A stretch of 64,000 nt of DNA from Desulfobacteraceae bacterium (lineage in GTDB: Bacteria > Desulfobacterota > Desulfobacteria > Desulfobacterales > JAABSP01). The DNA is taken from NCBI GenBank assembly GCA_011389855.1, contig JAABTM010000001.1, positions 7,827-71,826 on the forward strand, given 5' to 3'. The position numbers and the translations under genes were made by a program. How positions within the stretch are numbered: the stretch's first letter is position 1; every line of letters begins with the position of its first letter. Under the pieces are notes generated by a model. The model had not been told where the DNA came from. It saw only the letters and a list, made by a program, of their open reading frames with translations, and ran no database searches. This document shows positions 6,752 through 61,680 of this stretch, one piece after another.

Positions 6752-7069
6752 TCAGCCATCTCCCGAATCTTCGCCGCCGGCGCCGATCCCCGACAGATAA
6801 GCCTCCCACTCCATGGGAAGAAGCTCTCTTTTCCTGGTGTTGCAGGTCTTGCAGGCCGGGACGAGGTTGCCCTTGACGGACCGTCCGCCCCGGGACAGGG
6901 GGACGATATGATCCATGGTGAGATCCCTGGGGGACGTGGAACGGCCGCAGTAATGACAGACGCCCCGGTCGCAACGGCGCTTCCACCACTGGGACCCCCG
7001 CAGATCCCGGGCCCGGGACCGTTCCCGCTTCAGGTCTTCTTCTTCGAGATGAAAGGAAAAGGGCGTCAT
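6752..7069 (-). CDS. HNH endonuclease
   Basis: 105 aa with CHYCG...DHIVPLSRGG...NLVPACKTCN (HNH/Zn-finger signature). Its ATG overlaps the upstream stop (ATGA). Confidence 0.8.
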   Translation of the reverse strand: MTPFSFHLEEEDLKRERSRARDLRGSQWWKRRCDRGVCHYCGRSTSPRDLTMDHIVPLSRGGRSVKGNLVPACKTCNTRKRELLPMEWEAYLSGIGAGGEDSGDG

Positions 7070-18195: not shown

Positions 18196-19243
18196 TCCGT
18201 CCGGTCCGGTCCGAAACGGTCAGATCCCACGGCTCCAGCGCCGGATCGCCCCCCACCCGGACGGACCGGACCCCGGGCCGGCTTTCCAACGCCCTCAGAT
18301 TCCCGTTCCCCATTCCCCGGAGCGCATTGACGCGCCGGGGATGGGCTTTGAAAAACAACTCGCCGCTCGCCGCTATCAACTCGCCGCTCGCATCCACCAT
18401 CATATCAAAAAAAATCTTCGACAACACCAGATGCCCGAAGGCCGGATGGTAGGGCCCCGCCACGATGGCGGCGCCGGGGGCCAGATCCGCCGATGCCTGG
18501 AGTCCCGTCCGGATGACCGGAATCCCCCGCCCCTCGAACAGCAGGCGGAGGGCGGCGGTCCTTTCGACGCCGTCGGCCAGCGACAACGGCGGATACCGCC
18601 CCTCCCGGAACCGCCGGGCCAGAACGCTCCCCCTGAGCACTACCGTGGGATAGATCCGGACAAAATCGGGCCGCAAATCCGCCACGGCCCGGCCCGTGGC
18701 GGCGGCGCCCTCGGGATCTTCGCCGGGCAGCCCCACCATCATCTGAATCCCCACATTGTAGCCCCGGGCCTTCAGCATCGCGGCGGCCCGTCGGGTCGTT
18801 TCCGCCGTATGCCCCCGGTTGGAGAGGGCCAGCACCCGGTCGTCCATGGATTGGGCGCCCAGTTCCACGTCCGCCGCCGAAAACGCGGAAATCAGGTCCA
18901 GCCGGCGCTCGTCGATGGTGTCGGGCCGGGTGGAGAAGCGGATGGAATGGACCGCCCCACGTTGGACATGGTCCTGGGCCGCCGCCAGCAGGGAACGGAC
19001 CGTCTCCTCGGGCAGTCCGAGAAAATTGCCGCCGTAAAAGGCGATCTGAACCGGATGGCGATCCGGCCGGGCCAAGGACCGGAAGGTCCGGACCTGGCGG
19101 GCCACGGCGGCGGCGTCCGGGAGAACGGGCCCGGCATGAGTGATGGCGGTCTGGTCGCAGAAGGCGCACCGGTGGGGGCAGCCGGCATGGGGAATGAAAA
19201 CGGGAACGATCAGGGGTTTGGCGCGGGAGCGATCAGCGGACAT
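18140..19243 (-). CDS. ELP3-like radical SAM protein
   Basis: PVFIPHAGCPHRCAFCDQ cluster motif (CxxxCxxC). The start is taken at Met11 of the track ORF. It lies directly downstream of rnc. Confidence 0.8.
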   Translation of the reverse strand: MSADRSRAKPLIVPVFIPHAGCPHRCAFCDQTAITHAGPVLPDAAAVARQVRTFRSLARPDRHPVQIAFYGGNFLGLPEETVRSLLAAAQDHVQRGAVHSIRFSTRPDTIDERRLDLISAFSAADVELGAQSMDDRVLALSNRGHTAETTRRAAAMLKARGYNVGIQMMVGLPGEDPEGAAATGRAVADLRPDFVRIYPTVVLRGSVLARRFREGRYPPLSLADGVERTAALRLLFEGRGIPVIRTGLQASADLAPGAAIVAGPYHPAFGHLVLSKIFFDMMVDASGELIAASGELFFKAHPRRVNALRGMGNGNLRALESRPGVRSVRVGGDPALEPWDLTVSDRTGRTIFRRAVESPEPGSSTCG

Positions 19244-28286: not shown

Positions 28287-28847
28287 ATGAAAACAGAACT
28301 GATCGACCTTCTCCGCGAAAAATCCTTCCAGTTCACCGATGCGCCGACTTTCAAGCTGGCATCGGGGAAGATGAGCCGCTTCTACGTCAACTGCAAGCCC
28401 ACCACCCTCCATCCGCGGGGCATGTTCCTCTGCGGCCATTTGATTTTCGAGGCCCTGCGCGGCCTCGACATCTCCGGCGTCGGCGGGCTGACCTTCGGCG
28501 CGGACCCCCTGGCCATGGCCGCGGCGTTCGTCTCCGAACTCGAAAAGTCGCCCCTCAAGGCCTTTTCCATCCGGAAGACCCAAAAAGACCACGGCATCGT
28601 CAAGTGGATCGAGGGGGACATGGCCCCGGGCGAACGGGTGGCCATCGTCGAGGACGTGGTCACCACCGGCGGCTCCACCCTCAAGGCGGTGGACCGGGCC
28701 CGGGCCGAGGGACTGGAGGTGGTCAGGGTGGTCGCCCTCATCGACCGCCAGGAGGACGGGGGCATGGAGCGGATCAGGGAGAAAGCGGGCGACGCCGCGG
28801 CCATCATCGCCCTGGACGAGCTGCTCCCTCCCGGTCGCGCTCTCTGA
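28287..28847 (+). CDS. pyrE: orotate phosphoribosyltransferase
   Basis: PRPP-binding motif [13 protein letters not shown]; 186 aa. Confidence 0.9.
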
Positions 28848-30912
28848 CCGCCGCTTCCCGCTCCCGCCGCGCCTGAATCCAGTCCTCGACCCCCGCCGTC
28901 AGGGCCGCCCGCTCCGCTCTGTCCAGCGGTTTTCTCCCGAACCGGGTCCGGTAATGGAGGGCCAGCAGCGGGAAGAGCGGTTCGATATCCCCCGGCTCCT
29001 GTCGGGCCAGCCGCCGGAGCCAGTGGGACAAAGGCTCCCCGGTCTCCCGCCCATAGCCCCGTTCCGAAAGATAGGACTCGATCCGGTAGAAATCGGAATC
29101 GGCCCCGGGCCGGATCTCCGGGCCGCGCCGGACCGCCTCGGCCGTCCGGACCCGCCGGACGCCGCCCCGTTCCCGGTAAAACCGCCGCGCCAGCACCAGC
29201 GCCAACGGGATCAGCAGCCAGACCAGGTGCTTCCGGGCCTCCTCCCGGTACCGGAGCCAGGAAATCCGGTATCGCAGCCAGGCCCAAAGATCGGACATCA
29301 GGGTCCACCCGGCGGCCTCCCGCTCGATGCGGGACCAGTCCGGCGGCGTCACGTCCACCGCCCGCCAGGCGCCGCCGACCCAGGCCAGTGCCCAGGCATG
29401 GGCGTGGCGGTCCCGGACCACGAAGGCCTTTTCCAGCCGGCTGTATTCCTGGACCGAATACCCCACGGCGTACCGGGCCGGCACACCGGCGGCCCGTAAT
29501 AACAGCGTCGCCGCCGTGGCGAAATACTCGCAGTGCCCGGCCCGGCTCCGGACCAGAAAATCGGCCAGAGGCATGGAACCGCTCCCCCGAAGGGCCGGGT
29601 CCAGCGAATACGAAAACCCCTGCCCGAAAAACCGCGCCACGCCCCTCACCGCCGCGTCCGACGCCCCCCCTTTGTCCCTCTGTCCCTCTGTCCCTTTGTC
29701 CCTCCGTCCCTCCGTCCCTTTGTCCCTCCGTCCCCCTGTCCCTTTGTCCCTCCGATCCACTTCCCCACCGATCCCTTCAGCGCTCACGATCCTGTACAGA
29801 ATCTCCGCCAGGTTCCCCGGAATCACCAAATCGTTGGCGTCGGGCGGCCTGGCGAAACCGGCCGCCGGATGATGCCGGGCCGTGTAATCCACTAGGCCGG
29901 GCGCGCCCGCGGCCCGGACGGCGCCGTAGGGGTTGACCGCCACCTCGTCGGCCGGCAGGCCGGAGATCCGGAAGGTCCCCAGGGGCAGCGGCAGGAGCCC
30001 CTCGCCGCCGGAGAGGGGCGTGATAACGGTGACCGTTCGGGCCGGGGACCGGGCCGCGGCCAGGGGCCACTCGCCGCCGCCGGCCTTCCGGACCGTCTCG
30101 AATTGGGCCTTGACCGCATACCACCGGGAATGGCGGTAGGAATTGTAACTCGTCTCCCGGAGCAGCAGACTTTCGCCGCCGGGGTCCGGCCCCCGGACCC
30201 GGAACCTGATCCGGTCCGAGGGCTTCAGTTCCCCCACATCGCCGATGGCGGTCACGGTCCGGAACGGGTCCGCGTCTCCGTTCAGGCTGGCGAACCATTC
30301 CAGCCCCTTCTCCTCGATGATCCCCTGGAGCCGGTGCAGCCCCGCCTGGCCGGCCCAGCCCAGGGCCCCCGCCAGGAGGAGGATCATCCCCCAGAGAACC
30401 GGGGAAAACCGCCGGGACCGGCTGGGCGACAGCCCCAGCCCCGCCAGAAGGAGCACCCCCGGAAAATAACCGGGACTCCGGAAATTAGCGGCGCCGGCCG
30501 ACAGGACGCAGAGGATCCCGTAGGGATAGGTGAGATCGAGGACCACGGCCCGGTCCTGGCTTTTTTTCCCCTTCCGGAAGATCAAAGAGAGGGCCCGGAG
30601 ATCGACGCCGGCGCCGGCGCTCAGCTTCTGGGCCATGATGATGGGGAAATAGGCCATGGGCAGCCACTGGAGGGCGATGAAGACAACCTGGGTGGGGGGC
30701 CTCGTGGCCAGCAGCCAGAGGACCATTCCGATGAAAAGGGTGGTGCAGGCGTCGGAGACCCGGTTGAAATCCGAAAGGGAAAATTCCCACCGCCGCCGCA
30801 AAAATCCGGCCCCTTCCACCGCCGCCGCCATGACGGCGGCGATCTCCCAAAAGCCGGTCCGCCACCCCCAGAAGAGGAGACAGCCCCCCAGGAGCCATCG
30901 CGGCGGCTTCAT
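28804..30912 (-). CDS. transglutaminase-like membrane protein (TgpA-like: DUF3488 + transglutaminase core)
   Basis: The N-terminal region is polytopic. The core motif [28 protein letters not shown] contains the catalytic Cys. An octamer-repeat-derived insert lies at residues ~386-416. Confidence 0.8.
29665..29757 (-). repeat. about 11 tandem units of the 8-nt repeat (GGGACAGA family) inside the tgpA-like CDS
   Basis: The plus strand reads CCCTTTGT CCCTCTGT CCCTCTGT CCCTTTGT CCCTCCGT ... It is translated in frame as [31 protein letters not shown]. Confidence 0.85.
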
Positions 30913-45965: not shown

Positions 45966-48272
45966 ATGGAGGACCCTTTGGCGAACGAAACGATGCAAGC
46001 CTTAAACGACGCAGCCACGCTGCTGCTCCAAATCGAACCCGGAGACAGCGACGGCGACCTCGCCCGGCTGAAAGACAGACTGGACGCCTTGGCCGGAGAC
46101 GACGGCGTCCCCGAACCGGCGCGGACCGCCGCGGCCAAGGCCGCGTCCCACGCCGATGCCCTTCTGTCCCCGGACCCGGCCGACCCGACTTTCTCCGACG
46201 GCATCTCCGCCCTGGGCCACGCCATCGAAGCCGCCATGCACGCCCTTGAAGAAGGAACGGCCCTCCCTTCCGCCGCCGACCCGACTCCCGCGGACGAGCC
46301 CATTGTCGCAGCCGCCCCGGAGCCAGAAGCCGTTCCGACGCCGGAACCCCCAAGCCGGCCCGAATCTGCAACTAGCAACCCGCAAACCTACCAACTCCCC
46401 GAAGAGGCCGACCTCGACCTGATGGAAGCCTTTATCGTGGAAAGCAGCGACCTGCTGATCAACGCCGAAGAGGCCCTTCTGTCCCTGGAATCGGACCCCG
46501 GCGACATGGACGCCGTCAGCACGGTCTTCCGGGCCTTCCACACTATCAAAGGGACGTCCTCCTTTCTCGAACTAAACCTCGTCTCCGATCTGGCCCACCT
46601 GGCCGAGACCCTGCTGAGCCGGGTCCGGGACGGGGAAATCCAGTTCGCCGGCGGGTATGCCGACCTGGCCCTCCGGTCCCTGGACGCCCTCAAGGAAACC
46701 ATGGGCGAAGTCCAGTCCGCCCTGGACGGGTCTTCCTATTCGAAGCCGGCGTCCTATGACGGACTCCTAGCCGTCCTGACCGACCCCGAGGCCGCCGGGA
46801 TCTCCGAATCCCGGATCGCGGCCGAAACCCCCGCCCCCGAACCGGAGGCCCCGGTCGCTCCGACCGAACCGGAACCCGAACCGGCGCCCCCGGAACCCGA
46901 ATCGACGCCCCCGGAAGAAGCGGCCGCTCCCCCGTCTCCGCCGGAACCGGCCCCCGCCAAAGCCGAAGCCCCCCCCTGGCAAGACGCGGAGGCCCCGGAC
47001 CGGAAACAGGAGAAATCCGAGCCGAGCCGGGGGATTAAGGATTCCTCCATCCGGGTGCCGGTGGAGCGCCTCGACCGGTTCATCGACATGGTGGGGGAGC
47101 TGGTGGTGGCCCATTCCATGGTGGTCCAGGACGAGACGGTGGCCTCGGGGGGCCGCCACGAGCTGTCCAAAAAAGTGGGGCAGACCAGTAAGATCGTCCG
47201 GGAACTCCAGCGCATGAGCATGTCCATGCGGATGATCCCCCTCAAGGGAACTTTCCAGAAAATGACGCGCCTGGTGCGGGATCTGGCCCGGAAGGCGGGC
47301 AAGAACGTCTCCTTTCTCAACGAAGGGGAGGATACCGAGATCGACCGGAACATGGTGGACATCATCAACGACCCCCTCGTTCACATGGTGCGCAACGCCG
47401 TGGACCACGGCATCGAGAGCCCCGAGGACCGGGAACGGGCCGGCAAGCCGGTCAACGGCATCGTCCAGCTCTCGGCCTACCACTCGGCGGGCAACGTGGT
47501 GGTGGAGATCCGGGACGACGGCCGGGGGCTCGACCGGGAGGCGATCCTGTCCAAGGCCCTGGAGCGGGGGCTGATTCAGTCCATCGACGGGTTGTCGGAC
47601 GAAGAAGTCTTCAGCCTGATTTTCCAGCCCGGGTTCTCTACGGCCCAGAGCGTCTCCGAGGTCTCGGGCCGGGGCGTGGGCATGGACGTAGTCAAGACCA
47701 ATATCGAATCCCTCCGGGGGCAGGTGGAGGTGAAATCCTGGCCCGGACAGGGGTCCGCGGTGAAGATGAGCCTGCCCCTGACCCTGGCCATCATCGACGG
47801 CATGGTGATCCGGGCCGGTGAGCAGAAATTCGTCATCCCCACCATCTCCATCGTGCGATCAGTCCAGCCCTCGGCCGCGGACCTGTCCCGGGTTTTCAAC
47901 CGGGGGGAGATGCTCTCCCTCCAGGGCAAGCTGATACCCATGTTCCGGCTCGGCCGCCTTTTCGACATCCCCGACGCCGCCGCGGACCCCACAAAGGCCA
48001 TCGTGGTGGTGATAGAAGACGACCGGCGGCAGGTCGGCCTCCTGGTGGACGAACTCATCGGAAGCCAGCAGATCGTCATCAAGACCCTGGGGGATGCCCT
48101 GGGCGACATCCCCGGCATCTCGGGCAGCGCCATCATGCCCAACGGCCGGGTCGGCCTGATCCTCGACGTCGGCGGCTTGGTGCGGCTGGCCAATGATTCC
48201 CATTCAGAAAAGCAGGCGATCAATGAACTTAGCCAAAGCGATGACGGCGGAACTGAACGAGAAACAGTTTAA
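45966..48272 (+). CDS. cheA: chemotaxis histidine kinase CheA
   Basis: The Hpt domain (FRAFHTIKGTSSFL) sits after a ~180-aa Ala/Pro-rich extension. Dimerisation, HATPase (NAVDHGIE, DDGRGL, GRGVGMD) and CheW-like domains follow. Confidence 0.9.
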   Translation: MEDPLANETMQALNDAATLLLQIEPGDSDGDLARLKDRLDALAGDDGVPEPARTAAAKAASHADALLSPDPADPTFSDGISALGHAIEAAMHALEEGTALPSAADPTPADEPIVAAAPEPEAVPTPEPPSRPESATSNPQTYQLPEEADLDLMEAFIVESSDLLINAEEALLSLESDPGDMDAVSTVFRAFHTIKGTSSFLELNLVSDLAHLAETLLSRVRDGEIQFAGGYADLALRSLDALKETMGEVQSALDGSSYSKPASYDGLLAVLTDPEAAGISESRIAAETPAPEPEAPVAPTEPEPEPAPPEPESTPPEEAAAPPSPPEPAPAKAEAPPWQDAEAPDRKQEKSEPSRGIKDSSIRVPVERLDRFIDMVGELVVAHSMVVQDETVASGGRHELSKKVGQTSKIVRELQRMSMSMRMIPLKGTFQKMTRLVRDLARKAGKNVSFLNEGEDTEIDRNMVDIINDPLVHMVRNAVDHGIESPEDRERAGKPVNGIVQLSAYHSAGNVVVEIRDDGRGLDREAILSKALERGLIQSIDGLSDEEVFSLIFQPGFSTAQSVSEVSGRGVGMDVVKTNIESLRGQVEVKSWPGQGSAVKMSLPLTLAIIDGMVIRAGEQKFVIPTISIVRSVQPSAADLSRVFNRGEMLSLQGKLIPMFRLGRLFDIPDAAADPTKAIVVVIEDDRRQVGLLVDELIGSQQIVIKTLGDALGDIPGISGSAIMPNGRVGLILDVGGLVRLANDSHSEKQAINELSQSDDGGTERETV

Positions 48273-49056
48273 AAAGATCAGCGCGATCGTTTACGAACTC
48301 TGCGGCATCCACCTCAAGGCGGGCAAAGAAGCCCTGGTGCGGGCCCGGCTCATGAAGCGGCTCCGGGCCCTGGGCATGGAGAGTTTCGACGCGTACATCC
48401 ATTATATCGAGAGCGAAGCGGGGAGCCGGGAACTGGGGATGATGGTGGACGTCATGACCACCAACAAGACGAGCTTTTTCCGGGAACCGGCCCATTTCGA
48501 TTACCTGCGGGACCACGTTCTGCCCACCGTCCACCGACGGCGGATGCGGTTCTGGACCGCCGCCTGCTCGTCGGGGGAAGAACCCTACTCCCTCGCCATT
48601 TTCATCCGGGAGGCCATGCCGGACATCGATCTGAGGGACGTGAAGATCCTGGCGACGGACATCTCCACCCGGATGCTGGAAAAGGCCCGGCGCGCGACCT
48701 TTCCGAGGGAGGCGCTGCGGGAGATCCCCGGACACCTGCTGCAGAAATATTTCGTCAAGACGGCCCTGGCCGCCCCGGACGCGCCGCCCCTGTACCGGGT
48801 CAAGGATCCGGTGCTGGCCATGGTCCGGCTGGCGCGGCTCAATCTCATCGACAAATGGCCCATGAAAGGACCCTTCGACGTCATCTTCTGCCGAAACGTC
48901 ATGATCTATTTCGACCGATCCACCCAGCAGCGGCTCATCAACCGGTTCTGGAACTACCTGGAGCCCGGCGGATACCTCTTCGTCGGCCATTCCGAGGGGC
49001 TGTCGGCCATTTCCCATAAATTTCACTATGTGCGGCCGGCGGTGTATAAGAAATGA
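48223..49056 (+). CDS. cheR: chemotaxis protein methyltransferase CheR
   Basis: TTNKTSFFRE, RFWTAACSSGEEPYSL and FCRNVMIYFD motifs. The start could be 48223 or 48241; either overlaps the cheA 3' end. Confidence 0.88.
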   Translation: MNLAKAMTAELNEKQFKKISAIVYELCGIHLKAGKEALVRARLMKRLRALGMESFDAYIHYIESEAGSRELGMMVDVMTTNKTSFFREPAHFDYLRDHVLPTVHRRRMRFWTAACSSGEEPYSLAIFIREAMPDIDLRDVKILATDISTRMLEKARRATFPREALREIPGHLLQKYFVKTALAAPDAPPLYRVKDPVLAMVRLARLNLIDKWPMKGPFDVIFCRNVMIYFDRSTQQRLINRFWNYLEPGGYLFVGHSEGLSAISHKFHYVRPAVYKK

Positions 49057-49057
49057 A

Positions 49058-49092
49058 GGGACAAAGGGACAAAGGGACAGAGGGACAGAGGG
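49058..49092 (+). repeat. 4.4 tandem units of the 8-nt repeat GGGACA(A/G)A, G-rich strand in mRNA sense
   Basis: GGGACAAA GGGACAAA GGGACAGA GGGACAGA GGG starts 1 nt after the cheR stop codon. It satisfies the G3-N5-G3-N5-G3-N5-G3 pattern. Confidence 0.9.
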
Positions 49093-49102
49093 TGAGCGTT
49101 AC

Positions 49103-49126
49103 AGGCGCTCGGCGCCTTGGTTTTTT
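49103..49126 (+). terminator. canonical intrinsic terminator between cheR and cheD
   Basis: AGGCGC-TCG-GCGCCT stem-loop followed by TGG TTTTTT. It lies inside the spacer between the two inverted octamer arrays. Confidence 0.65.
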
Positions 49127-49170
49127 GATACATCCGTTGTTCCCGGCGCATATGATCTTCCACCCTTGGG

Positions 49171-49246
49171 CCTTTGTCCCTCTGTCCCTCTGTCCCTTTG
49201 TCCCTCTGTCCCTCTGTCCCTCTGTCCCTCTGTCCCTCTGTCCCTC
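49171..49246 (-). repeat. about 9.5 tandem units of the same 8-nt repeat in inverted orientation
   Basis: The plus strand reads CCTTTGTC CCTCTGTC CCTCTGTC CCTTTGTC then CCTCTGTC x5 and CCTC, ending 9 nt before the cheD ATG. It is the reverse complement of the array at 49058-49092. Confidence 0.9.
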
Positions 49247-49255
49247 GGTGTTTCA

Positions 49256-49729
49256 ATGAAACACGTCGTCTACGTAGGGGACATGAAAACCGGGGAGCGG
49301 GAGGACATGCTCGTGACCCATGCGCTGGGAAGCTGCCTGGGGCTGATGGTCTACGACCCCGTGGCCCAGGTGGGGGGGTTGCTCCACGCCATGCTTCCGC
49401 TGTCGAGCATCAATCCCCAGAAGGCCAGGGCCAATCCCTACATGTTCGTGGACACCGGGGTTCCCACGCTTTTCAAGACCCTGTACCACATGGGGGGACA
49501 GAAATCGCGCCTCATCGTCAAGGTGGCCGGATGCGGAAAGCCGCTGGGCAACGACGCGATGTTCAAGATCGGAGAGCGGAATTACACGGTCTTGAAAAAA
49601 CTGCTCTGGAAAAACAACGTACTGCTGCAAGCGGAACAGGTTGGCGGCACGGCCAGCCGCACGGTCCATTTCGACCTGTCGACGGGCCGCACCACCATCA
49701 GCAGCGGCGGCGCCAAAACCGATTTATAG
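49256..49729 (+). CDS. cheD: CheD-family chemoreceptor glutamine deamidase (short paralogue 1)
   Basis: [10 protein letters not shown]...[29 protein letters not shown] carries Thr21, Cys27 and His44 at canonical CheD positions. The ATG at 49256 is in frame within track ORF 49028..49729, whose upstream part is repeat read-through. Confidence 0.8.
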
Positions 49730-49751
49730 GGGGGAAGAAGAAAGGACGATA

Positions 49752-51233
49752 ATGAAACAAATGGGCGTGAGAAAAAAGATGGGGACGGTCACGGTGATCA
49801 TGATCTTGGTCTCCATTCTGGTGGCCGCGAGCTTCAGCATCTACGATTATGTCCGGGAACGGGGTCGGATGGCCGAAAATTTCAACGAAATGATCGATCC
49901 CATCGCCAAGCGGCTGGCCAACGGCATCCAGAGGCCGCTCTGGTTCCTGGACGAAAGCCTGACGGAAAAGCTCATCGAACTGGAGATGATAGACAAACGG
50001 GTCTACGGCGTGGTGGTCCGGGAATCCGACGGCAAGACCGTTTTCGCCGCCAAGAAGCGGAACGCCGACTGGGCGGTCGTGGACGCCGAAGGCGCCATGG
50101 AAAACGGATACGTGGTCAAGGAAGAACCCATCCAGTACGAGGGCAAGACCATTGGGACCGTCGAAGTGTATTTCACCACCCGGTTCATGCAGGAGGCCCT
50201 GAACGATCTCATCGTCTCGATCGTCGTCAAGGTGGTGGTCATGAGCGTGCTCCTGGTCTCCATCCTGCTCTTCATCGTCAACCGGTTTTTCATCCGCCCC
50301 ATCTCGGAAGTGACCGTCGGGCTGGACGACATCAGCACGGAAGTGAATCTGGCCGTTGAACAGGTGGCCGAGACCAGTCAGCATCTCACCGACGGCGCCT
50401 CCCGGCAGGCCTCGTCCGTGGAAGAGACCTCCGCATCCCTGGAGGAAATGAATTCCATGATCCGGCAGAGCGCCGAAAACCTCAAGCACGCCAGCGGCGT
50501 GATGTCGGAGACGGGCCAGGTGGTCGGGGACGCGGCCCGGTCCATGTCCCGGCTGACCGATTCCATGGCCGACATCTCCAAGACCGGCGAAGAGACGCGG
50601 AAGGTCATCAAGACCATCGAGGAGATCGCCTTCCAGACAAACCTCCTGGCCCTCAACGCGGCCGTGGAGGCGGCCCGGGCCGGCGAGGTGGGGGCCGGGT
50701 TCGCCGTGGTGGCCGAGGAGGTCCGGAACCTGGCCATCCGCTCCAGCGACGCGGCCCGGAACACGGCGGACCTCATCGAGGCTTCCATTCAGGGCATCCA
50801 GAACGGCTCCGAGGTTGTCTTCAAGACCAACGACGCCTTCAAAAGCGTGGCCGATGGCGCCAAAAAGGTGGAATCCCTGCTGACCGAGGTGACGGCCGCC
50901 TCCCAGGAACAGGCTCAGGGCATTCAGCAAATCAACTCCGCCATGTCGGAGATCGACAAGGTCACCCAGGAAAACACCGGTTCCGCCGAGAACATGACCG
51001 CGGCCCTGGAAGGGATCAACGGGCAGGTGTATCACATCAAAACCTATGTCCGAAAGCTGCTGGGGCTCATCGGCGCCAAAGGCGGGGCCGCCGGACCGCG
51101 GCGTCAGGACCGGCAATCCCGGCAAGCCTACCTTCCGGAAAGCGACGACGACACGTTTCTCCTGGACGAGGACTGGGAGCGGCAAGCTTCCCAAAAACGG
51201 AAAGCGCTGCCGGAAACGACCGAAAAGGAATAG
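49752..51233 (+). CDS. methyl-accepting chemotaxis protein
   Basis: ATG 49752 (Met38 of the track ORF). Two TM helices flank a ~150-aa periplasmic region. The signalling domain core [38 protein letters not shown] is highly conserved. Confidence 0.88.
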
Positions 51234-51278
51234 ATGCCCGAGAGAACAGGGCAAGGGGTTTAATGAAAAGGGGAGACC

Positions 51279-52127
51279 ATGAATCCTGAGATCGTGGAAC
51301 GGATCGAGACCGACGCAGCCGCCTTCGCCGCCCGGCATCGGGATGCGGCCGGGGCGCTGCTCGACATCCGGACTTCGTCCGCCGCCGCCGTCTCCGGACG
51401 GCTGGACGCGGCGGATTCCCGGATCGCCGACATCGCCCTCAATCTAATCAACAGCGGGTATTTCGGCCTTCCCCGAAACGCCAAATCGATCCCCCACGCC
51501 CATGAAATGATGGGCGGCGAGCGGTTGGCCCAGGCGGTTCTGGCCGCGTGGGCCCATGGCCTGCTGTCGGCGCCGGTCGCCGGATACGACCTGCCGGCCG
51601 GGGACCTCTGGCGGCACGCCCTGGGGGTGTCCATCGCCTCGGAGAACCTGGCGGAAGCGGTCCGGGTCGATGGGGGCCGGACCGCCTTCACCGCCGGGAT
51701 CTTCCACGATATCGGGAAGCGGGTTCTGGGACCTTACGTGGCCGATGCGTCGGACGACATCGAACGGAAAACCGAAGAGGGAGTCTCCTTCGAAGCTGCG
51801 GAAGCCGCCGTGCTGGGGATCGACCACGCGGCCCTGAGCGGCCGGATCCTCTCGGCCTGGCATTTTCCCCGGGAACTGATCGAAGCCGTCCGCTGGAGCC
51901 ACGTTCCGGACGGGATGGACCCGCCCTCCCTTCTGGCGGATCTCCTCCATGTCAGCAACGTCCTGTGCCTGACCATCGGCATCGGCATGGGAAAAGAGGG
52001 ATTGAAATACAAAGCATCTCCGGCGGCCACCAAACGGCTCAACGCCAAAATCGGGACGCTTGAACTGGTGGCCAGTCATACGCTACAATGGACGAACGAA
52101 CTGGCCGATCCGTCCGGCGCCGTCTGA
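51279..52127 (+). CDS. HDOD domain protein
   Basis: GIFHDIGKRVL...GIDHAALSGRILSAWHFP pattern typical of HDOD. Confidence 0.8.
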   Translation: MNPEIVERIETDAAAFAARHRDAAGALLDIRTSSAAAVSGRLDAADSRIADIALNLINSGYFGLPRNAKSIPHAHEMMGGERLAQAVLAAWAHGLLSAPVAGYDLPAGDLWRHALGVSIASENLAEAVRVDGGRTAFTAGIFHDIGKRVLGPYVADASDDIERKTEEGVSFEAAEAAVLGIDHAALSGRILSAWHFPRELIEAVRWSHVPDGMDPPSLLADLLHVSNVLCLTIGIGMGKEGLKYKASPAATKRLNAKIGTLELVASHTLQWTNELADPSGAV

Positions 52128-52171
52128 CGTCCGGGAAACCATCATCAAAGAGCCTGTTGAAAGGTTCGATT

Positions 52172-52558
52172 ATGCCCATGAACATACTGATCGTCGACGA
52201 TAGCGCGGTCATGCGGTCCATGATCCTGAAGTCCCTTCGCATGGCCGGCCTGGATATCGCGGCGGCCCACCAGGCAACCAACGGGCTGGAGGGGCTGACC
52301 CTCCTCAACGAACATCCCATCGACGTCGTCATCGCCGACATCAACATGCCGGTGATGAACGGCGAGGAGATGATCCAGCGGATGAAAGCCGACGACAAGA
52401 CCAAAAACATTCCGGTCCTGGTCATCTCCACCGAGGGGAGCGAAACACGGAAAGAGAGCCTGAAAGAACAGGGCGTCGCATTTATCCATAAACCCTTTTC
52501 ACCGGAACAGATCCGGGACACCATGAACGCGATTCACAACAGCGCGGGGAGGACGTGA
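52172..52558 (+). CDS. cheY: CheY-like single-domain response regulator (copy 1)
   Basis: ATG 52172 (Met29 of the track ORF). ILIVDDS...VVIADINMPVMNG...VLVISTEG...FIHKPF motifs; 128 aa. Confidence 0.88.
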   Translation: MPMNILIVDDSAVMRSMILKSLRMAGLDIAAAHQATNGLEGLTLLNEHPIDVVIADINMPVMNGEEMIQRMKADDKTKNIPVLVISTEGSETRKESLKEQGVAFIHKPFSPEQIRDTMNAIHNSAGRT

Positions 52559-57389: not shown

Positions 57390-58114
57390 AGCGGCGTCTC
57401 CTTCCCCTGGACCATTCGGCTGATGTACCCCGCGTCGGCGAAGCTGAAATACCGGTTGTCCCCGATCACCAGGTGTTCGTGGACCGTGATGCCCATCACC
57501 CGGCAGGCCTCGATGAGCTGGCGGGTGACGGCGATGTCCTCGGCCGAAGGGCTGGGATCCCCCGACGGGTGGTTGTGGGCGAAGATCAACGCCGCCGCGT
57601 GCTGGTCCAGGGCGGCCCGCACCACCTCCCGGGGATAAACGGAGCTGGCGGTCAGGGTCCCTTCGAAGAGGGTTTCGGTCCCGATGATCCTGTTTTTGGC
57701 GTCCAGGAACAGGGCCTTGAAACATTCCCGGTTCCGGTCCCGCATGGTGCCGTAAAGGTAGTCGAACAGCTCTTGGGAGTTGTTGACCGGATCCCGCTTG
57801 ATCAGCCGCTTCTCCAGGTACCGGTCGGCCACCGCCTTGGCGAGCTTGACGCCGAAGACGTTGGTGGGGCCGATCCCGTCGATCTCGCACATCTCCTCCA
57901 CCGACGCCTCGAACACCCCCTGAAAGCTTTTAAACTGCTTCAACGCCGCCTTGGCCGCGTCCTTGCAGTCCCGCCGGGGCGTGGCAAGCGTCAGCAGCAG
58001 CTCGATCACCTCGTAGTCGTGGAACCCCTCCAGACCCGACGCCAGAAATTTCTCCCGCAACCGCTTTCGGTGGCCGGCGCCTTTGTGTTCTTTATGTGCT
58101 TTGGTCTCGGACAA
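57386..58114 (-). CDS. radC: RadC-family JAB/MPN domain protein
   Basis: N-terminal HhH region, then the C-terminal JAMM motif IFAHNHPSGDPSPSAEDI. Confidence 0.88.
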   Translation of the reverse strand: MSETKAHKEHKGAGHRKRLREKFLASGLEGFHDYEVIELLLTLATPRRDCKDAAKAALKQFKSFQGVFEASVEEMCEIDGIGPTNVFGVKLAKAVADRYLEKRLIKRDPVNNSQELFDYLYGTMRDRNRECFKALFLDAKNRIIGTETLFEGTLTASSVYPREVVRAALDQHAAALIFAHNHPSGDPSPSAEDIAVTRQLIEACRVMGITVHEHLVIGDNRYFSFADAGYISRMVQGKETPL

Positions 58115-59143
58115 TTATCGCTCGTCCAACTCATCCTTCAAATCCCTCGTCATCAACCGCTTCAACGCCTCGGCCGGGGAGACCTCGTCGTAGAGGACAT
58201 GGTAGATCTCGTGGGAGATGGGCATCTCCACGCCGAGTTTCCGGGAGAGGTTGTAGACCGACTTGGCGGTTTTGACGCCTTCGGCCACCATCCGCATGTC
58301 CGCCAGGATCTCCGTGAGGGTCATCCCCTCCCCGATTTTCCTGCCCACGGTGTGGTTCCGGCTGATGTCGCCGGTGCAGGTCAGGATCAGGTCGCCGATG
58401 CCCGCCAGACCGGTGAAGCTGCGGGGGTTGGCGCCCATTTTGACCCCCAGGCGGCGGATCTCGGTGAGCCCCCGGGTGATGAGGGCCGCCCTGGTGTTGA
58501 GGCCCAGCCCCAGCCCGTCGATGATGCCGGCGGCTATGGCGATGACGTTTTTGACGGCGCCGCCCAGCTCCACGCCGATGACGTCCTCGCTGGTGTAGAC
58601 CCGGAAGGCCGGGGTGGCGAACGCCTGCTGGACTTTCCGGGCCGTTTCCGGGGAGGGCGAGGCCGCCGTGACCGCCGTGGGCACGAGCCGGGCCACCTCC
58701 TTGGCGAAAGAGGGCCCCGACAGGACCGCCAGCCGGTCGGGCCGGATCCCGGTCAGGGTGTCGGCCAGAACCCCGGACATGGTCAGGTGGGTGCCGTTCT
58801 CGATGCCCTTGGACGCCGTCACCACGGTGGTCTTGTCGGCCACCATCCCCGCCATCTTCTGCCCGGTTTCCCGCATCACATGGGAGGGGACCACCACCAG
58901 CAACAAATCCCGGTCGGCCGCGACCCGCTCCAGGTCGTTGGTGGCGGAGAGGTTGTCCGACAGGGTCACCCCCGGCAGAAACCACTCGTTTTCCCGCCTG
59001 GCCTCAATGGATTCCCGCACCTCCGGCTCGTACACCCACAAATCGATGGAATACCCCTTGACAGCCAGAAGATTGGCCAAAGCCGTCCCCCAGGAGCCGC
59101 CGCCCACAACGCCGATCCTCGCATCCATAAGGTTCTCCATCAT
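58115..59143 (-). CDS. gpsA: NAD(P)H-dependent glycerol-3-phosphate dehydrogenase
   Basis: [14 protein letters not shown] Rossmann motif, [12 protein letters not shown]; 342 aa. The ATG overlaps the gyrA stop. Confidence 0.9.
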
Positions 59144-61680
59144 GCCTCCGGCTCCTCCGGCCCTTCGTCCCTTTCTGCCTCTGTCCCTCCGTCCCTCTGT
59201 CCCTCTGTCCCTCTGTCCCTCTGTCCCTCCATCCCTTCTTCTTCCAGTTCCTCCTCCTTCTCCGCCAACCGCGCCGCCCCCACCACCCGCTCGTCCGTCT
59301 CCAGGTTCATGAGCTTGACGCCCTGGGTGTTGCGGCTGATGACCGAGATGCCGGAGACCGGCATCCGGATGATCTTGCCGCTGTCGGTCATGAGCATCAG
59401 ATCGTCGTCTTCTTCCACCAGCAGGATGGCCACCACCCGGCCGTTCCGCTCGCTGGTCTTGATGGTGATGACGCCTTTGCCGCCCCGGCGGCGGAGGGGG
59501 TACTCGTCGATGGCGGTCCGCTTGCCGAAGCCGTTTTCCGTGGCGGTGAAAAGCGTCTGGCCGTGGCTGAGCACCTCCATGCCCACCAGGTGGTCGTCGG
59601 CGGACAGGCTCATGCCCCGCACGCCCTGGGCCGCCCGGGTCATGGTCCGCACATCCGATTCATGGAACCGGATCGACTGGCCGTTGGCGGATCCCAGAAA
59701 GACGTTCATGCCGCCGTCGGTGATCCGGGCCGCCATGAGTTCGTCCCCTTCGGTGAGATTGATGCCGATGATCCCGCCGGTCCGGGGGCGGCTGTAGGCC
59801 ATGAGATCGGTCTTTTTCACCATCCCGTTCTTGGTGGCCATTAGGATGAAGCGGTCGGGCGTGAAGTCCGGCACGTTGAGGACCGTGGTCAGTTTTTCGT
59901 CCTTGCCGAACTCCAGGAGGTTGACGATGGCCTTGCCCCGGGATGAGCGGCCCGCCTGGGGGATGTCGTAGACCTTGCACCAGAAGACCCGCCCCAGGTT
60001 GGTGAAAAAGAGGAAGGTGTGATGGGTGGAGGCTACGAAAAGGAGGTAGACGAAATCGTCCTCCTTCTTGCCCATGGCGGTCTTGCCCCGGCCGCCCCGC
60101 CGCTGGCTGGTATAGAGGGTGATGGGGTTCCGCTTGATGTATCCGCTCCGGGTGATGGTGACCACCATGTCCTCTTCGGCGATCATGTCGGCGATGGTCA
60201 GCTCCCGGGTGGAAGCCGCGATTTCGGTGCGCCGCTCGTCGCCGTAGGCCTCCTGGAGGGCGGTCAACTCCTCCTTGATGATGTCGAGGACGATCCGCTC
60301 GCTGCCGAGGATCTCCTTGTACCAGGCGATGTCCTTCAACACCTGCTGGTATTCCTCGACGATCTTTTCCCGCTCCAGGCCGGTGAGCCGGTGGAGGCGC
60401 ATGTCCAGGATAGCCTGGGCCTGGGCCGCCGACAGCCCGAAGCGGTCCATCAACCGCTCTTTGGCCTCGGGCGCGTTTTTGGACGCACGGATCAGCGCCA
60501 CCACCTCGTCGAGGTTGTCCAGGGCTATCTTGAGTCCTTCCAGGATGTGGGCCCGCTCCTCGGCTTTCCGCAGGTCGTACCGGGTCCGCCGGACGATGAT
60601 CTCCTTCCGGTGGCGGATGAACTGCTCCAGAAGCTCCTTGAGGGAGAAAACCTGGGGCCGGTTGTGGAGAACCCCCAGCAAATTGATCCCGAAGCTGGTC
60701 TCCATCTGGGTGTGCTTGTAGAGCTGGTTGATCACCACCTCGGCCATGGCGTCCCGTTTCAGGGCGACGGCGATGCGCATGCCCTGCCGGTCGGACTCGT
60801 CCCGGACGTAGCGGACCCCCTCGATGACCTTCTCCTTCATCAGGGCGGCGATCTTCTCGATGAGCTTCGACTTGTTGACCTGGTAGGGGATTTCGTAGAC
60901 CGCGATCGTCTCGGCGCCGGTCTTGGGATCCTCCTCCACCTCGGATTTGGCCCGGATCCGTATGACCCCCCGGCCGGTCCGGTAGGCGTCCCGGATGCCG
61001 TCCACGCCGTAGATGACCCCGGCGGTGGGAAAGTCGGGGCCCGGCACATGTTGCATCAGCTCTTCCAGGGAGATGGCCGGCTCGTCGATGAGCGCCTTCA
61101 GGGCGGAGATGATCTCGGTCAGGTTGTGGGGCGGAATGTTGGTGGCCATGCCCACGGCGATGCCCGAGGAGCCGTTGATGAGCAGGGAGGGGAGCTTGGC
61201 CGGAAGCACCGAGGGTTCGGTGAGGGATTCGTCGTAGTTTTCCACCCAGTCGACGGTCTCTTTTTCCAGGTCCGCCAGCATTTCGTGGGCCATTTTGGCC
61301 ATCCGGACCTCGGTGTACCGCATAGCCGCCGGCGGGTCGCCGTCGACGGAACCGAAGTTGCCCTGGCCGTCCACCATGGGGTAGCGGAGGGAAAAGCTCT
61401 GGGCCATACGGACAATGGCGTCGTAGACGGCGCTGTCGCCGTGGGGGTGGTATTTACCGATGACGTCGCCCACGATGCGGGCCGACTTTTTGTAGGGTTT
61501 GTTCCAGTCGTTCTTCAGCTCGTGCATGGCGAAAAGCACGCGGCGATGCACGGGCTTGAGGCCGTCCCGAACGTCCGGGAGGGCCCGCCCGATGATCACG
61601 CTCATGGCGTAATCGAGATATGATCGCTTCATCTCGCTGGCGATGCTGATCTCGGGCAATCTGTCTGTTTCTGTTGTCAT
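59140..61680 (-). CDS. gyrA: DNA gyrase subunit A
   Basis: [28 protein letters not shown] and the catalytic Tyr region AAMRYTE, followed by C-terminal beta-pinwheel repeats. The last ~30 codons are encoded by the octamer repeat. Confidence 0.95.
59161..59240 (-). repeat. about 10 tandem units of the 8-nt repeat forming the extreme 3' end of gyrA
   Basis: The plus strand reads CCCTTCGT CCCTTTCT GCCTCTGT CCCTCCGT, then CCCTCTGT x4, then CCCTCCAT CCCTTCTT. It is translated as [25 protein letters not shown], followed by PEEPEA and the stop. Confidence 0.85.

Follow-up and report, generated by a model that had tools for sequence, protein, structure and literature searches.

A translatable palindromic octamer repeat as a putative bridge between cheR and cheD in a Desulfobacteraceae bacterium

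Short G-rich tandem repeats that are dispersed through bacterial genomes have been described by Rehm et al. (2015; PMC4692102), with the heptamers GGGAATC in Xanthomonas and GGGGAYT in Nostoc (STRR repeats). They form arrays of 2-26 copies, mostly between co-oriented genes and on average 28 nt from the upstream stop codon, and each genome has 70-75 convergent inverted pairs able to form stem-loops (PMC4692102). Mycobacterial interspersed repetitive units (MIRUs) insert at start codons and carry an internal open reading frame (ORF) coupled at -4 nt, with little effect on the host gene (reviewed in PMC12548453), and repeats of the REP/BIME/REPIN type affect mRNA stability and downstream expression (PMC3116915). 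Here we describe the junction between the chemotaxis genes cheR and cheD in a 64,000-nt stretch of a Desulfobacteraceae bacterium (contig JAABTM010000001.1; the window), at which inverted arrays of the octamer GGGACARA flank a short spacer. We favor the interpretation, with a probability of about 0.58, that this is a tolerated palindromic repeat whose putative translation bridges the junction and so keeps cheR and cheD coupled.

An initial annotation of the window described two inverted 8-nt arrays on either side of a 78-nt spacer and arms able to pair over more than 30 bp, and both descriptions hold. Tandem Repeats Finder reports (AAGGGACA)4.6 at 49056-49092 for the G-rich arm (period 8, 96% matches) and (CCTCTGTC)9.5 at 49171-49246 for the C-rich arm (95% matches), and the two-unit pattern GGGACRRAGGGACRRA with no more than one mismatch has 27 matches in the window against 0.07 expected from shuffles. 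A single base, A (49057), separates the cheR stop codon (TGA, 49054-49056) from the first GGGAC, and the cheD ATG (49256-49258) lies 9 nt beyond the C-rich array. As had been remarked, no strong Shine-Dalgarno sequence precedes cheD in the window, where there is only a weak GGTG at 49247-49250. In the structure of minimum free energy (MFE) predicted for RNA from 49040-49270 (-108.4 kcal/mol, z = -8.9), the two arms form a stem of about 35 bp. The same annotation had raised the concern of an assembly artefact; this does not apply to the arrays, since six further contigs, each assembled independently, have homologous elements at this junction.

The whole element is spanned by a small ORF of 68 codons that overlaps the genes on both sides. 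Its ATG (49053-49055) overlaps the cheR TGA (aaATGAag) and its TGA (49257-49259) overlaps the cheD ATG (caATGAaa), so that there is an ATGA overlap at both ends, and like a MIRU it lies between operon genes with an internal ORF overlapping the neighboring stop and start codons. Overlaps of the ATGA type are a classic sign of coupling through termination and reinitiation of translation (PMC6728339, PMC10666635). For chemotaxis genes, it has been argued that translational coupling stabilizes protein ratios, and because coupling is thought to buffer these ratios there is a clear reason to preserve it (PMC2716512). Equivalent bridging ORFs are found in relatives, with lengths of 159 nt (L128 and L122), 186 nt (L123/L124) and 183 nt (L121), all multiples of three; in L129/L130 four extra C-arm units shift the frame, and a 215-nt ORF is still open with its TGA 1 nt before the cheD ATG. 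The bridging frame is thus open in all six alleles examined; in most of them the frames in register with cheR and with cheD carry stop codons in the spacer. No cheD Shine-Dalgarno sequence is present anywhere in the element-bearing clade. The initial annotation suggested a switch that uncouples cheA-cheR from cheD-mcp-cheY, whereas a stop-free ORF that has an ATGA overlap with each gene, and stays open in the six alleles, points to preserved coupling. An N-terminal extension of CheD was also considered and rejected: in the window the cheD frame has no stop back to 49028, but all relatives have stops in it.

The length of the cheR-cheD gap is 199, 175, 151, 178, 25, 292 and 10 nt in the window, L121, L122, L123, L125, L127 and L131 respectively, with a remainder of 1 on division by three in each case. 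The outgroups L125 and L127 share this remainder, although their intergenic sequences are unrelated and hold no bridging ORF.

Two short contigs from public sequencing runs (L118 and L119), which encode an identical CheD, are 99.9-100% identical to the window over 4.8 kb except that they lack exactly the 200 nt of 49055-49254. By blastn, L118 1-1719 corresponds to window 47336-49054 with one mismatch, and L118 1720-4834 to 49255-52369 with none. At the junction of these contigs AAGAAAT is joined to AATGAAAC, and cheR and cheD overlap directly as TAATG. These empty sites were at first read as evidence for a fresh insertion in the window, a reading abandoned when four, and later six, relatives were found to carry a homologous element. 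Such elements occupy the same junction in five lineages (L121/L129, L122, L123/L124, L128 and the window) whose CheD proteins are about 90% identical; each allele has AAATGAA, a 4-unit G arm, an alignable spacer of 72-93 nt, a C arm of 4-10 units and then cheD, giving an element of 150-210 bp. The window spacer is homologous to those of L122 and L128 and, more distantly, to those of L121 and L123. The sister lineage (L131-133) is array-free: a 10-nt gap, ATGAtttttttccaATGA (AAATGAtttttttccaATGAAAC), has both overlaps and no Shine-Dalgarno sequence, and holds a five-codon mini-ORF, ATGATTTTTTTCCAATGA, with the same double ATGA overlap. The T-rich part of window 49247-49264 is homologous to native sequence of the sister lineage (tttttttcca). 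The outgroup L125 has its own GGAGGG Shine-Dalgarno sequence and no element, and other distant relatives have unrelated gaps. In a neighbor-joining tree of cheR plus cheD the sister lineage falls outside the element-bearing clade, and the empty L118 falls inside it, beside the window. Since relatives share the element and the tree nests the empty contigs within the clade, the history reconstructed from these sequences is a single old insertion into a tiny junction, vertical inheritance through about 15% nucleotide divergence, and a very recent loss in one strain.

The loss itself left the junction AAGAAATAATGAAAC, which lacks microhomology and matches neither the ancestral sequence nor what recombination between AATGAA repeats would produce. 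Slippage, or template switching by a reverse transcriptase, between AATGAA or AAT repeats predicts AAGAAATGAAAC and is therefore rejected as its source. Array length changes quickly, as L121 and L129 differ by 1.2% in their genes and by four units in the C arm. The C arm is the longer arm in the window (9.5 versus 4.4 units), in L121 (6 versus 4) and in L129 (10 versus 4), and expansion seems limited to this cheD-proximal arm. Every allele is nonetheless predicted to fold into a long G-arm:C-arm stem (MFE -72 to -114 kcal/mol), and matched changes across the arms are seen in L122 and L128 (GGCAC/GTGCC and GGCGC/GCGCC), from which the two arms are judged to evolve in concert. The spacer motif TGATTTTTT of L122, L128 and L123 (TGGTTTTTT in the window, 49119-49128) is the same as the native junction TGATTTTTTT of the array-free sister lineage, which may be either a coincidence or a trace of the formation of the element.

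A plausible explanation for these observations is that the ancestor of a Desulfobacteraceae-like clade acquired a 200-bp palindromic element, on a single occasion, in the tiny cheR-cheD junction and passed it on to its descendants. Because the sister lineage has a five-codon version with both overlaps, we propose that the element landed within a coupling mini-ORF that has presumably been open ever since, and that it is tolerated because it is translatable. Ribosomes terminating on cheR would reinitiate on the small ORF and, in translating it, unwind the stem of about 35 bp, disrupting in passing a terminator hairpin that is specific to this allele; they would then stop atop the cheD ATG and reinitiate there, so that a cheD lacking a Shine-Dalgarno sequence receives ribosomes. 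What would count is translation as such and not the peptide, and array length would drift by slippage while the arms remain complementary. We infer that the small ORF is translated, that coupling is maintained in this way, and that the element is not adaptive but selfish or neutral. There is no conservation of the peptide; the spacers of the window and L122 differ by about 3 synonymous and about 12 non-synonymous codons as read from their alignment.

Several points weigh against this translated bridge. The open frame alone is only suggestive, because the stop-free arms leave just the spacer of about 75-90 nt able to gain stops; by shuffling, an open spacer has a chance of about 0.5 per lineage, or 0.048 over five lineages before allowing for shared ancestry. 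The L129/L130 allele breaks the exact -4 overlap, the predicted stem of about -100 kcal/mol begins 1 nt after the cheR stop and might block reinitiating ribosomes, and cheD could start independently on an unpaired U/C-rich leader. A spacer T-run is also kept in four of the five lineages, hinting at another constraint. The first of these points is shared by an account in which the element is neutral junk, an untranslated intergenic hairpin with cheD initiating alone, and in which the open frame and the ATGA overlaps are by-products of the stop-free arms and of the ATGAAA start of cheD. The TGA overlap is indeed intrinsic to cheD ATG AAA and the ATG overlap to cheR AAA TGA, the peptide varies, and a frame change is tolerated in L129/L130. 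We nevertheless find this account rather doubtful. Five lineages keep lengths that are multiples of three though the arrays step by 8 nt, which adds weight to the open-frame argument; cheD lacks a Shine-Dalgarno sequence in both the clade and the sister lineage, but in the outgroup, where the untranslated gap is longer, GGAGGG is present; and the loss variant and the sister lineage both hold the stop and the start within 0-10 nt of each other. A recent insertion of an active copy resembling a MITE (miniature inverted-repeat transposable element) or a REPIN, made by a transposase that recognizes the arrays as terminal inverted repeats, is very improbable. Inverted terminal arrays around a short core in a small element that has no transposase gene would fit it, as would the AATGAA direct repeat that flanks the element (GAAATGAA in L121), the near-identical contigs differing just by the presence or absence of exactly 200 nt, a CTCCGCC core in three of four hairpin spacers of one Phycisphaeraceae bin, and the strong polarity of inverted pairs reported below. 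However, the element is old at its site and the empty site is a loss nested in the clade; the flanking repeat is explained by the native cheR AAATGA and cheD ATGAAA; and an AATGAA target-site duplication as the source of both ATGA overlaps is weakened by the sister junction, which already has both. The junction left by the loss does not fit either, blastn gave no further copy of the spacer in the window or loci L001-L117, scans of JGI metagenomes for the spacer and for the cheR/G-arm junction gave no match, and solo arrays such as that in the gyrA tail are not MITE-shaped. Of the MITE-like insertion suggested in the initial annotation, what survives is an insertion relative to the sister lineage, a hairpin and a dispersed repeat family, and not a recent or active copy.

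A structured switch, in which the quadruplex, the long hairpin and the terminator are alternative folds that set the flow from cheA-cheR into cheD-mcp-cheY, would draw on several features of the window allele. A consensus scan finds the GC-rich hairpin and U-tract of an intrinsic terminator in the spacer, as had been claimed; its local fold is -10.0 kcal/mol with a 3-nt gap between stem and T6, and a competing hairpin just upstream (GAGCGTT-ACA-GGCGCTC, 49094-49110) is seen in the full-length MFE structure. The G arm fits the quadruplex rule, again as proposed, with five sense G3 tracts at 49058, 49066, 49074, 49082 and 49090 and 5-nt loops, and a predicted 7-bp hairpin, GTGTTTC (49248-49254)/AAT/GAAACAC (49258-49264), encloses the cheD start. 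Retention of the element at the junction over its known divergence, and of the T-run in most lineages, could also be taken in favor of a switch. Mutual exclusion of the three folds holds only in part, however: the G arm can be in either the quadruplex or the long stem, with the duplex predicted to be far more stable, but the terminator hairpin has no base in common with either arm and, as transcription reaches its T-run before the C arm, cannot face competition from the long stem. Moreover, folds and alignment of the relatives show that the terminator hairpin and U-tract are not conserved in orthologous elements, with a weak fold in L122 and L128, U6 in the loop of a different hairpin in L123, and no T-run in L121/L129, and the start-codon hairpin is confined to the window, L122 and L128. 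Elements of the same kind lie inside essential coding sequences, where efficient termination would be lethal, and in a near-identical strain the element is gone but stop and start still overlap directly. The element is therefore probably not a switch, and we regard that alternative as unlikely. A search of Rfam 15 found nothing above the gathering score, only microRNA-precursor look-alikes far below threshold, which are due to the long stem. Only the spacer-proximal 36 nt or so of the C arm are predicted to pair with the G arm, and the remaining CU-rich RNA of about 36 nt (window 49211-49246) is predicted to be unpaired just upstream of cheD.

Table 1. Positions of the cheR-cheD element, its parts and the other octamer arrays in the window
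Feature	Position	Strand	Basis or detail
cheR	48223..49056	+	Pfam CheR_N + CheR, E = 4e-62; ORF list; L118 gene calls
Bridging small ORF, 68 codons	49053..49259	+	ORF list
200-nt segment absent from L118/L119	49055..49254	+	blastn
G-rich arm	49058..49092	+	GGGACAAA x2, GGGACAGA x2, then GGG; 4.4 units GGGACARA
Spacer (hairpin loop region), 78 nt	49093..49170	+	blastn and alignment of alleles
Terminator-like hairpin	49103..49126	+	AGGCGC-TCG-GCGCCT (49103-49117), TGG, T6 (49121-49126); consensus scan
C-rich arm	49171..49246	+	9.5 units TYTGTCCC (G-rich on minus strand)
cheD junction	49247..49264	+	Weak Shine-Dalgarno-like GGTG (49247-49250) and small hairpin over cheD start
cheD, 157 aa	49256..49729	+	Pfam CheD, E = 4.7e-26
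Array in coding sequence of transglutaminase-like membrane protein (28804-30912, minus)	29668..29754	-	Tandem Repeats Finder, period 24; Pfam
Array in gyrA C-terminal tail (gyrA 59140-61680, minus)	59154..59236	-	10.25 units; Pfam

The order of the surrounding genes, by Pfam, is CheA, CheR, CheD, MCP, HDOD and CheY. The cheR start follows the gene call of the near-identical contig L118 (the earliest ATG in frame is at 48193), and the top listed homologues of CheD are 156-161 aa long, nearly all of them 157 aa. In relatives (L121-L124) the chemotaxis cluster has, at the equivalent of the window downstream of 52558, three CheD paralogues together with CheX, CheB and several CheY-like receivers, and the repeat element precedes only the first cheD of that cluster.

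Related arrays had been reported at three other places in the window. Only two are clear, both of them within coding sequences with the G-rich strand as the sense strand; the third may have been a two-unit match, GGGACAGGGGGACGAT at 6892-6907, which is at chance level and is not an array. The gyrA array has 10.25 units in the window and 4.25 in relatives L120 and L123, a difference of 48 nt (6 units) that keeps the frame. A relative with 92% identical GyrA has an array at the same place, and at 77% identity or less the GyrA tails are plain and acidic. There are thus three array sites in 64 kb, together with the gpsA-radC junction and the gyrA tails of relatives. At window 57941-58140 the gpsA stop is followed directly by the likely radC start (TAATTG); in L121 (11441-11650) a full G-arm/spacer/C-arm hairpin lies between the gpsA stop and the radC ATG and is open in the frames of both genes, and L123 has a C-rich array at this junction (18940-19000). 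This is a second stop/start junction, colonized in some lineages only. Look-ups of the exact GpsA and CheR proteins of the window returned no record.

The sequence of the octamer suggests why it can occupy such positions. Its G strand has no T and its C strand no A, so no stop codon can occur in any of the six frames, and since 8 and 3 share no factor, all frames of a strand run through one and the same 24-nt cycle, which encodes the cyclic peptide GTEGQRDR (G strand) or SVPLSLCP (C strand). A scan for (GGGACRRA)3 in one genome per species found at least 117 stretches. Among the matches listed there are many phyla, with Phycisphaerae and other Planctomycetota dominant and several genome bins matched more than once, and of the 215 arrays in the matched loci those forming close inverted pairs (no more than 100 nt apart) are 11 G-then-C and one C-then-G, a polarity that holds whichever strand is read. 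Statements on coding location are restricted to cases backed by Pfam, the ORF-spanning test being noisy in GC-rich DNA. With that restriction, hairpin elements lie in frame within IleRS (L036) and aconitase (L083) of Phycisphaerae bins, in which one Pfam domain match spans the insert, and single arrays lie in frame within LeuRS (L032) and DnaE (L058), also of Phycisphaerae bins, with Pfam domains on both sides. A stop-free and frame-independent 8-nt unit simply explains the occurrence of arrays inside gyrA and these four genes.

Among viral contigs the real pattern has 11 stretches, against 4, 6 and 3 for permuted units. An excess of only 2-3-fold speaks against a uniquely special octamer, and we do not propose that all these arrays belong to one cross-phylum family; similar stop-free purine-rich octamers may have arisen independently. 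Two or three separate GGGACRRA arrays are present in each of three viral contigs, IMGVR_UViG_3300009128_000230 (L142), IMGVR_UViG_3300031999_006178 (L135/L137/L143) and IMGVR_UViG_3300033407_000965 (L134/L144), and contigs matched by the permuted controls have a single stretch each; arrays may spread within phage genomes too. One Phycisphaeraceae bin has at L117 1160-1290 the same hairpin architecture built from a different octamer (GGAAGTCG/GGAAGTGG and complement), which suggests a general class of hairpins with octamer arms and not one sequence. In the Phycisphaeraceae bin JBAYVY01 (L043, L099 and L117) three of the four hairpin spacers contain CTCCGCC/GGCGGAG in either orientation, where about 0.03 per spacer is expected, a hint that these are related copies of a mobile unit. 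The loci with octamers (L053, L111, L117, L043, L036 and others) also give 95 Tandem Repeats Finder rows of period-7 repeats with diverse units, 14 of them in one Bacteroidales locus, and their genomes seem generally rich in 7-8-nt tandem repeats.

One tentative interpretation, which we think improbable on balance, is that GGGAC-type octamer hairpins are an undescribed class of coding-compatible selfish DNA that crosses phyla (Planctomycetota/Phycisphaerae, Desulfobacterota, Acidobacteriota, Bacteroidota and some viral contigs), in which the unit has been selected to be stop-free and frame-independent and the polarity of pairs comes from a dedicated generating activity. If so, such a unit would let hairpins colonize essential genes and translationally coupled junctions, and the activity might be, to name two examples, one that adds G-rich repeats to 3' ends from a template or a single-strand transposase specific for hairpins.

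At the cheR-cheD junction, where coupling is tight, an operon has absorbed a very stable palindrome of 200 bp and is not visibly harmed, the insert being translatable, and the natural loss variant is a ready-made experimental control. More broadly, a repeat unit that is stop-free and reads alike in every frame may offer selfish DNA a general way of being compatible with coding, and may give rise to new disordered protein segments and new small ORFs. In practice, arrays of this kind break short-read assemblies, inflate ORF predictions and mislead predictors of terminators and quadruplexes.

The initial annotation did not recognize the repeat as a described family, and the papers searched have no match to the repeat string: single octamers match unrelated primer lists only and unit dimers match nothing. 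A paper on intrastrand triplexes (PMC4666352) was considered and set aside, as it concerns a different motif. There is, though, a precedent in kind in the Xanthomonas and Nostoc heptamers (PMC4692102), which share with the octamer the G3-containing tandem units, the position after a stop codon, the inverted pairs, the variation in copy number and the fit to the quadruplex rule. They differ in that the unit here is 8 nt and not 7 by Tandem Repeats Finder and the host is Desulfobacteraceae-like; the heptamers occur less often than expected within coding regions whereas the octamer is coding at two of its three sites in the window, and no bridging ORF or stop-free property is reported for them (PMC4692102). 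Like the REP/BIME/REPIN repeats (PMC3116915), the element has inverted doublets, long hairpins and a dispersed intergenic distribution in operons, but a REP is one imperfect palindrome, some 20-40 nt long, whose 5' tetranucleotide is conserved, and is extragenic and associated with a RAYT gene, and the arms in the window are tandem octamers. The tandem repeats of Borgs (PMC9879509) are likewise fast-evolving, near-perfect and frame-keeping within ORFs, where they add disordered polar peptide; their units are locus-specific, locally arisen and multiples of three in ORFs, whereas here one 8-nt unit recurs and forms inverted pairs.

The window allele also resembles a Rho-independent terminator or attenuator in having a 6-bp GC stem, a 3-nt loop and U6 inside a putatively translated, leader-like ORF, but the U-run begins 3 nt past the stem and the hairpin is absent or different in orthologous elements. 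With MIRUs it has in common a repeat at an operon gene junction, an internal ORF whose end overlaps the downstream start by 4 nt, and a variable copy number; MIRUs are direct tandem units of 40-100 bp with no long hairpin, are confined to mycobacteria and have no sequence relationship to the octamer. Rickettsia palindromic elements, which Ogata et al. are said to have described in 2000, are reportedly hairpin-forming selfish repeats found both in intergenic regions and in frame in protein-coding genes, those for housekeeping functions included. They share with the octamer hairpins the placing of a palindromic repeat in frame inside conserved genes, with the addition of a tolerated peptide, and differ in being palindromes of 100-150 bp of unique sequence, with no known frame-independent coding and with unrelated hosts and sequences. 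By analogy, the cheR-cheD element is best seen as combining the genomic behavior of the Xanthomonas and Nostoc heptamers with the junction-ORF trick of MIRUs and the in-frame insertion reported for the Rickettsia palindromic elements.

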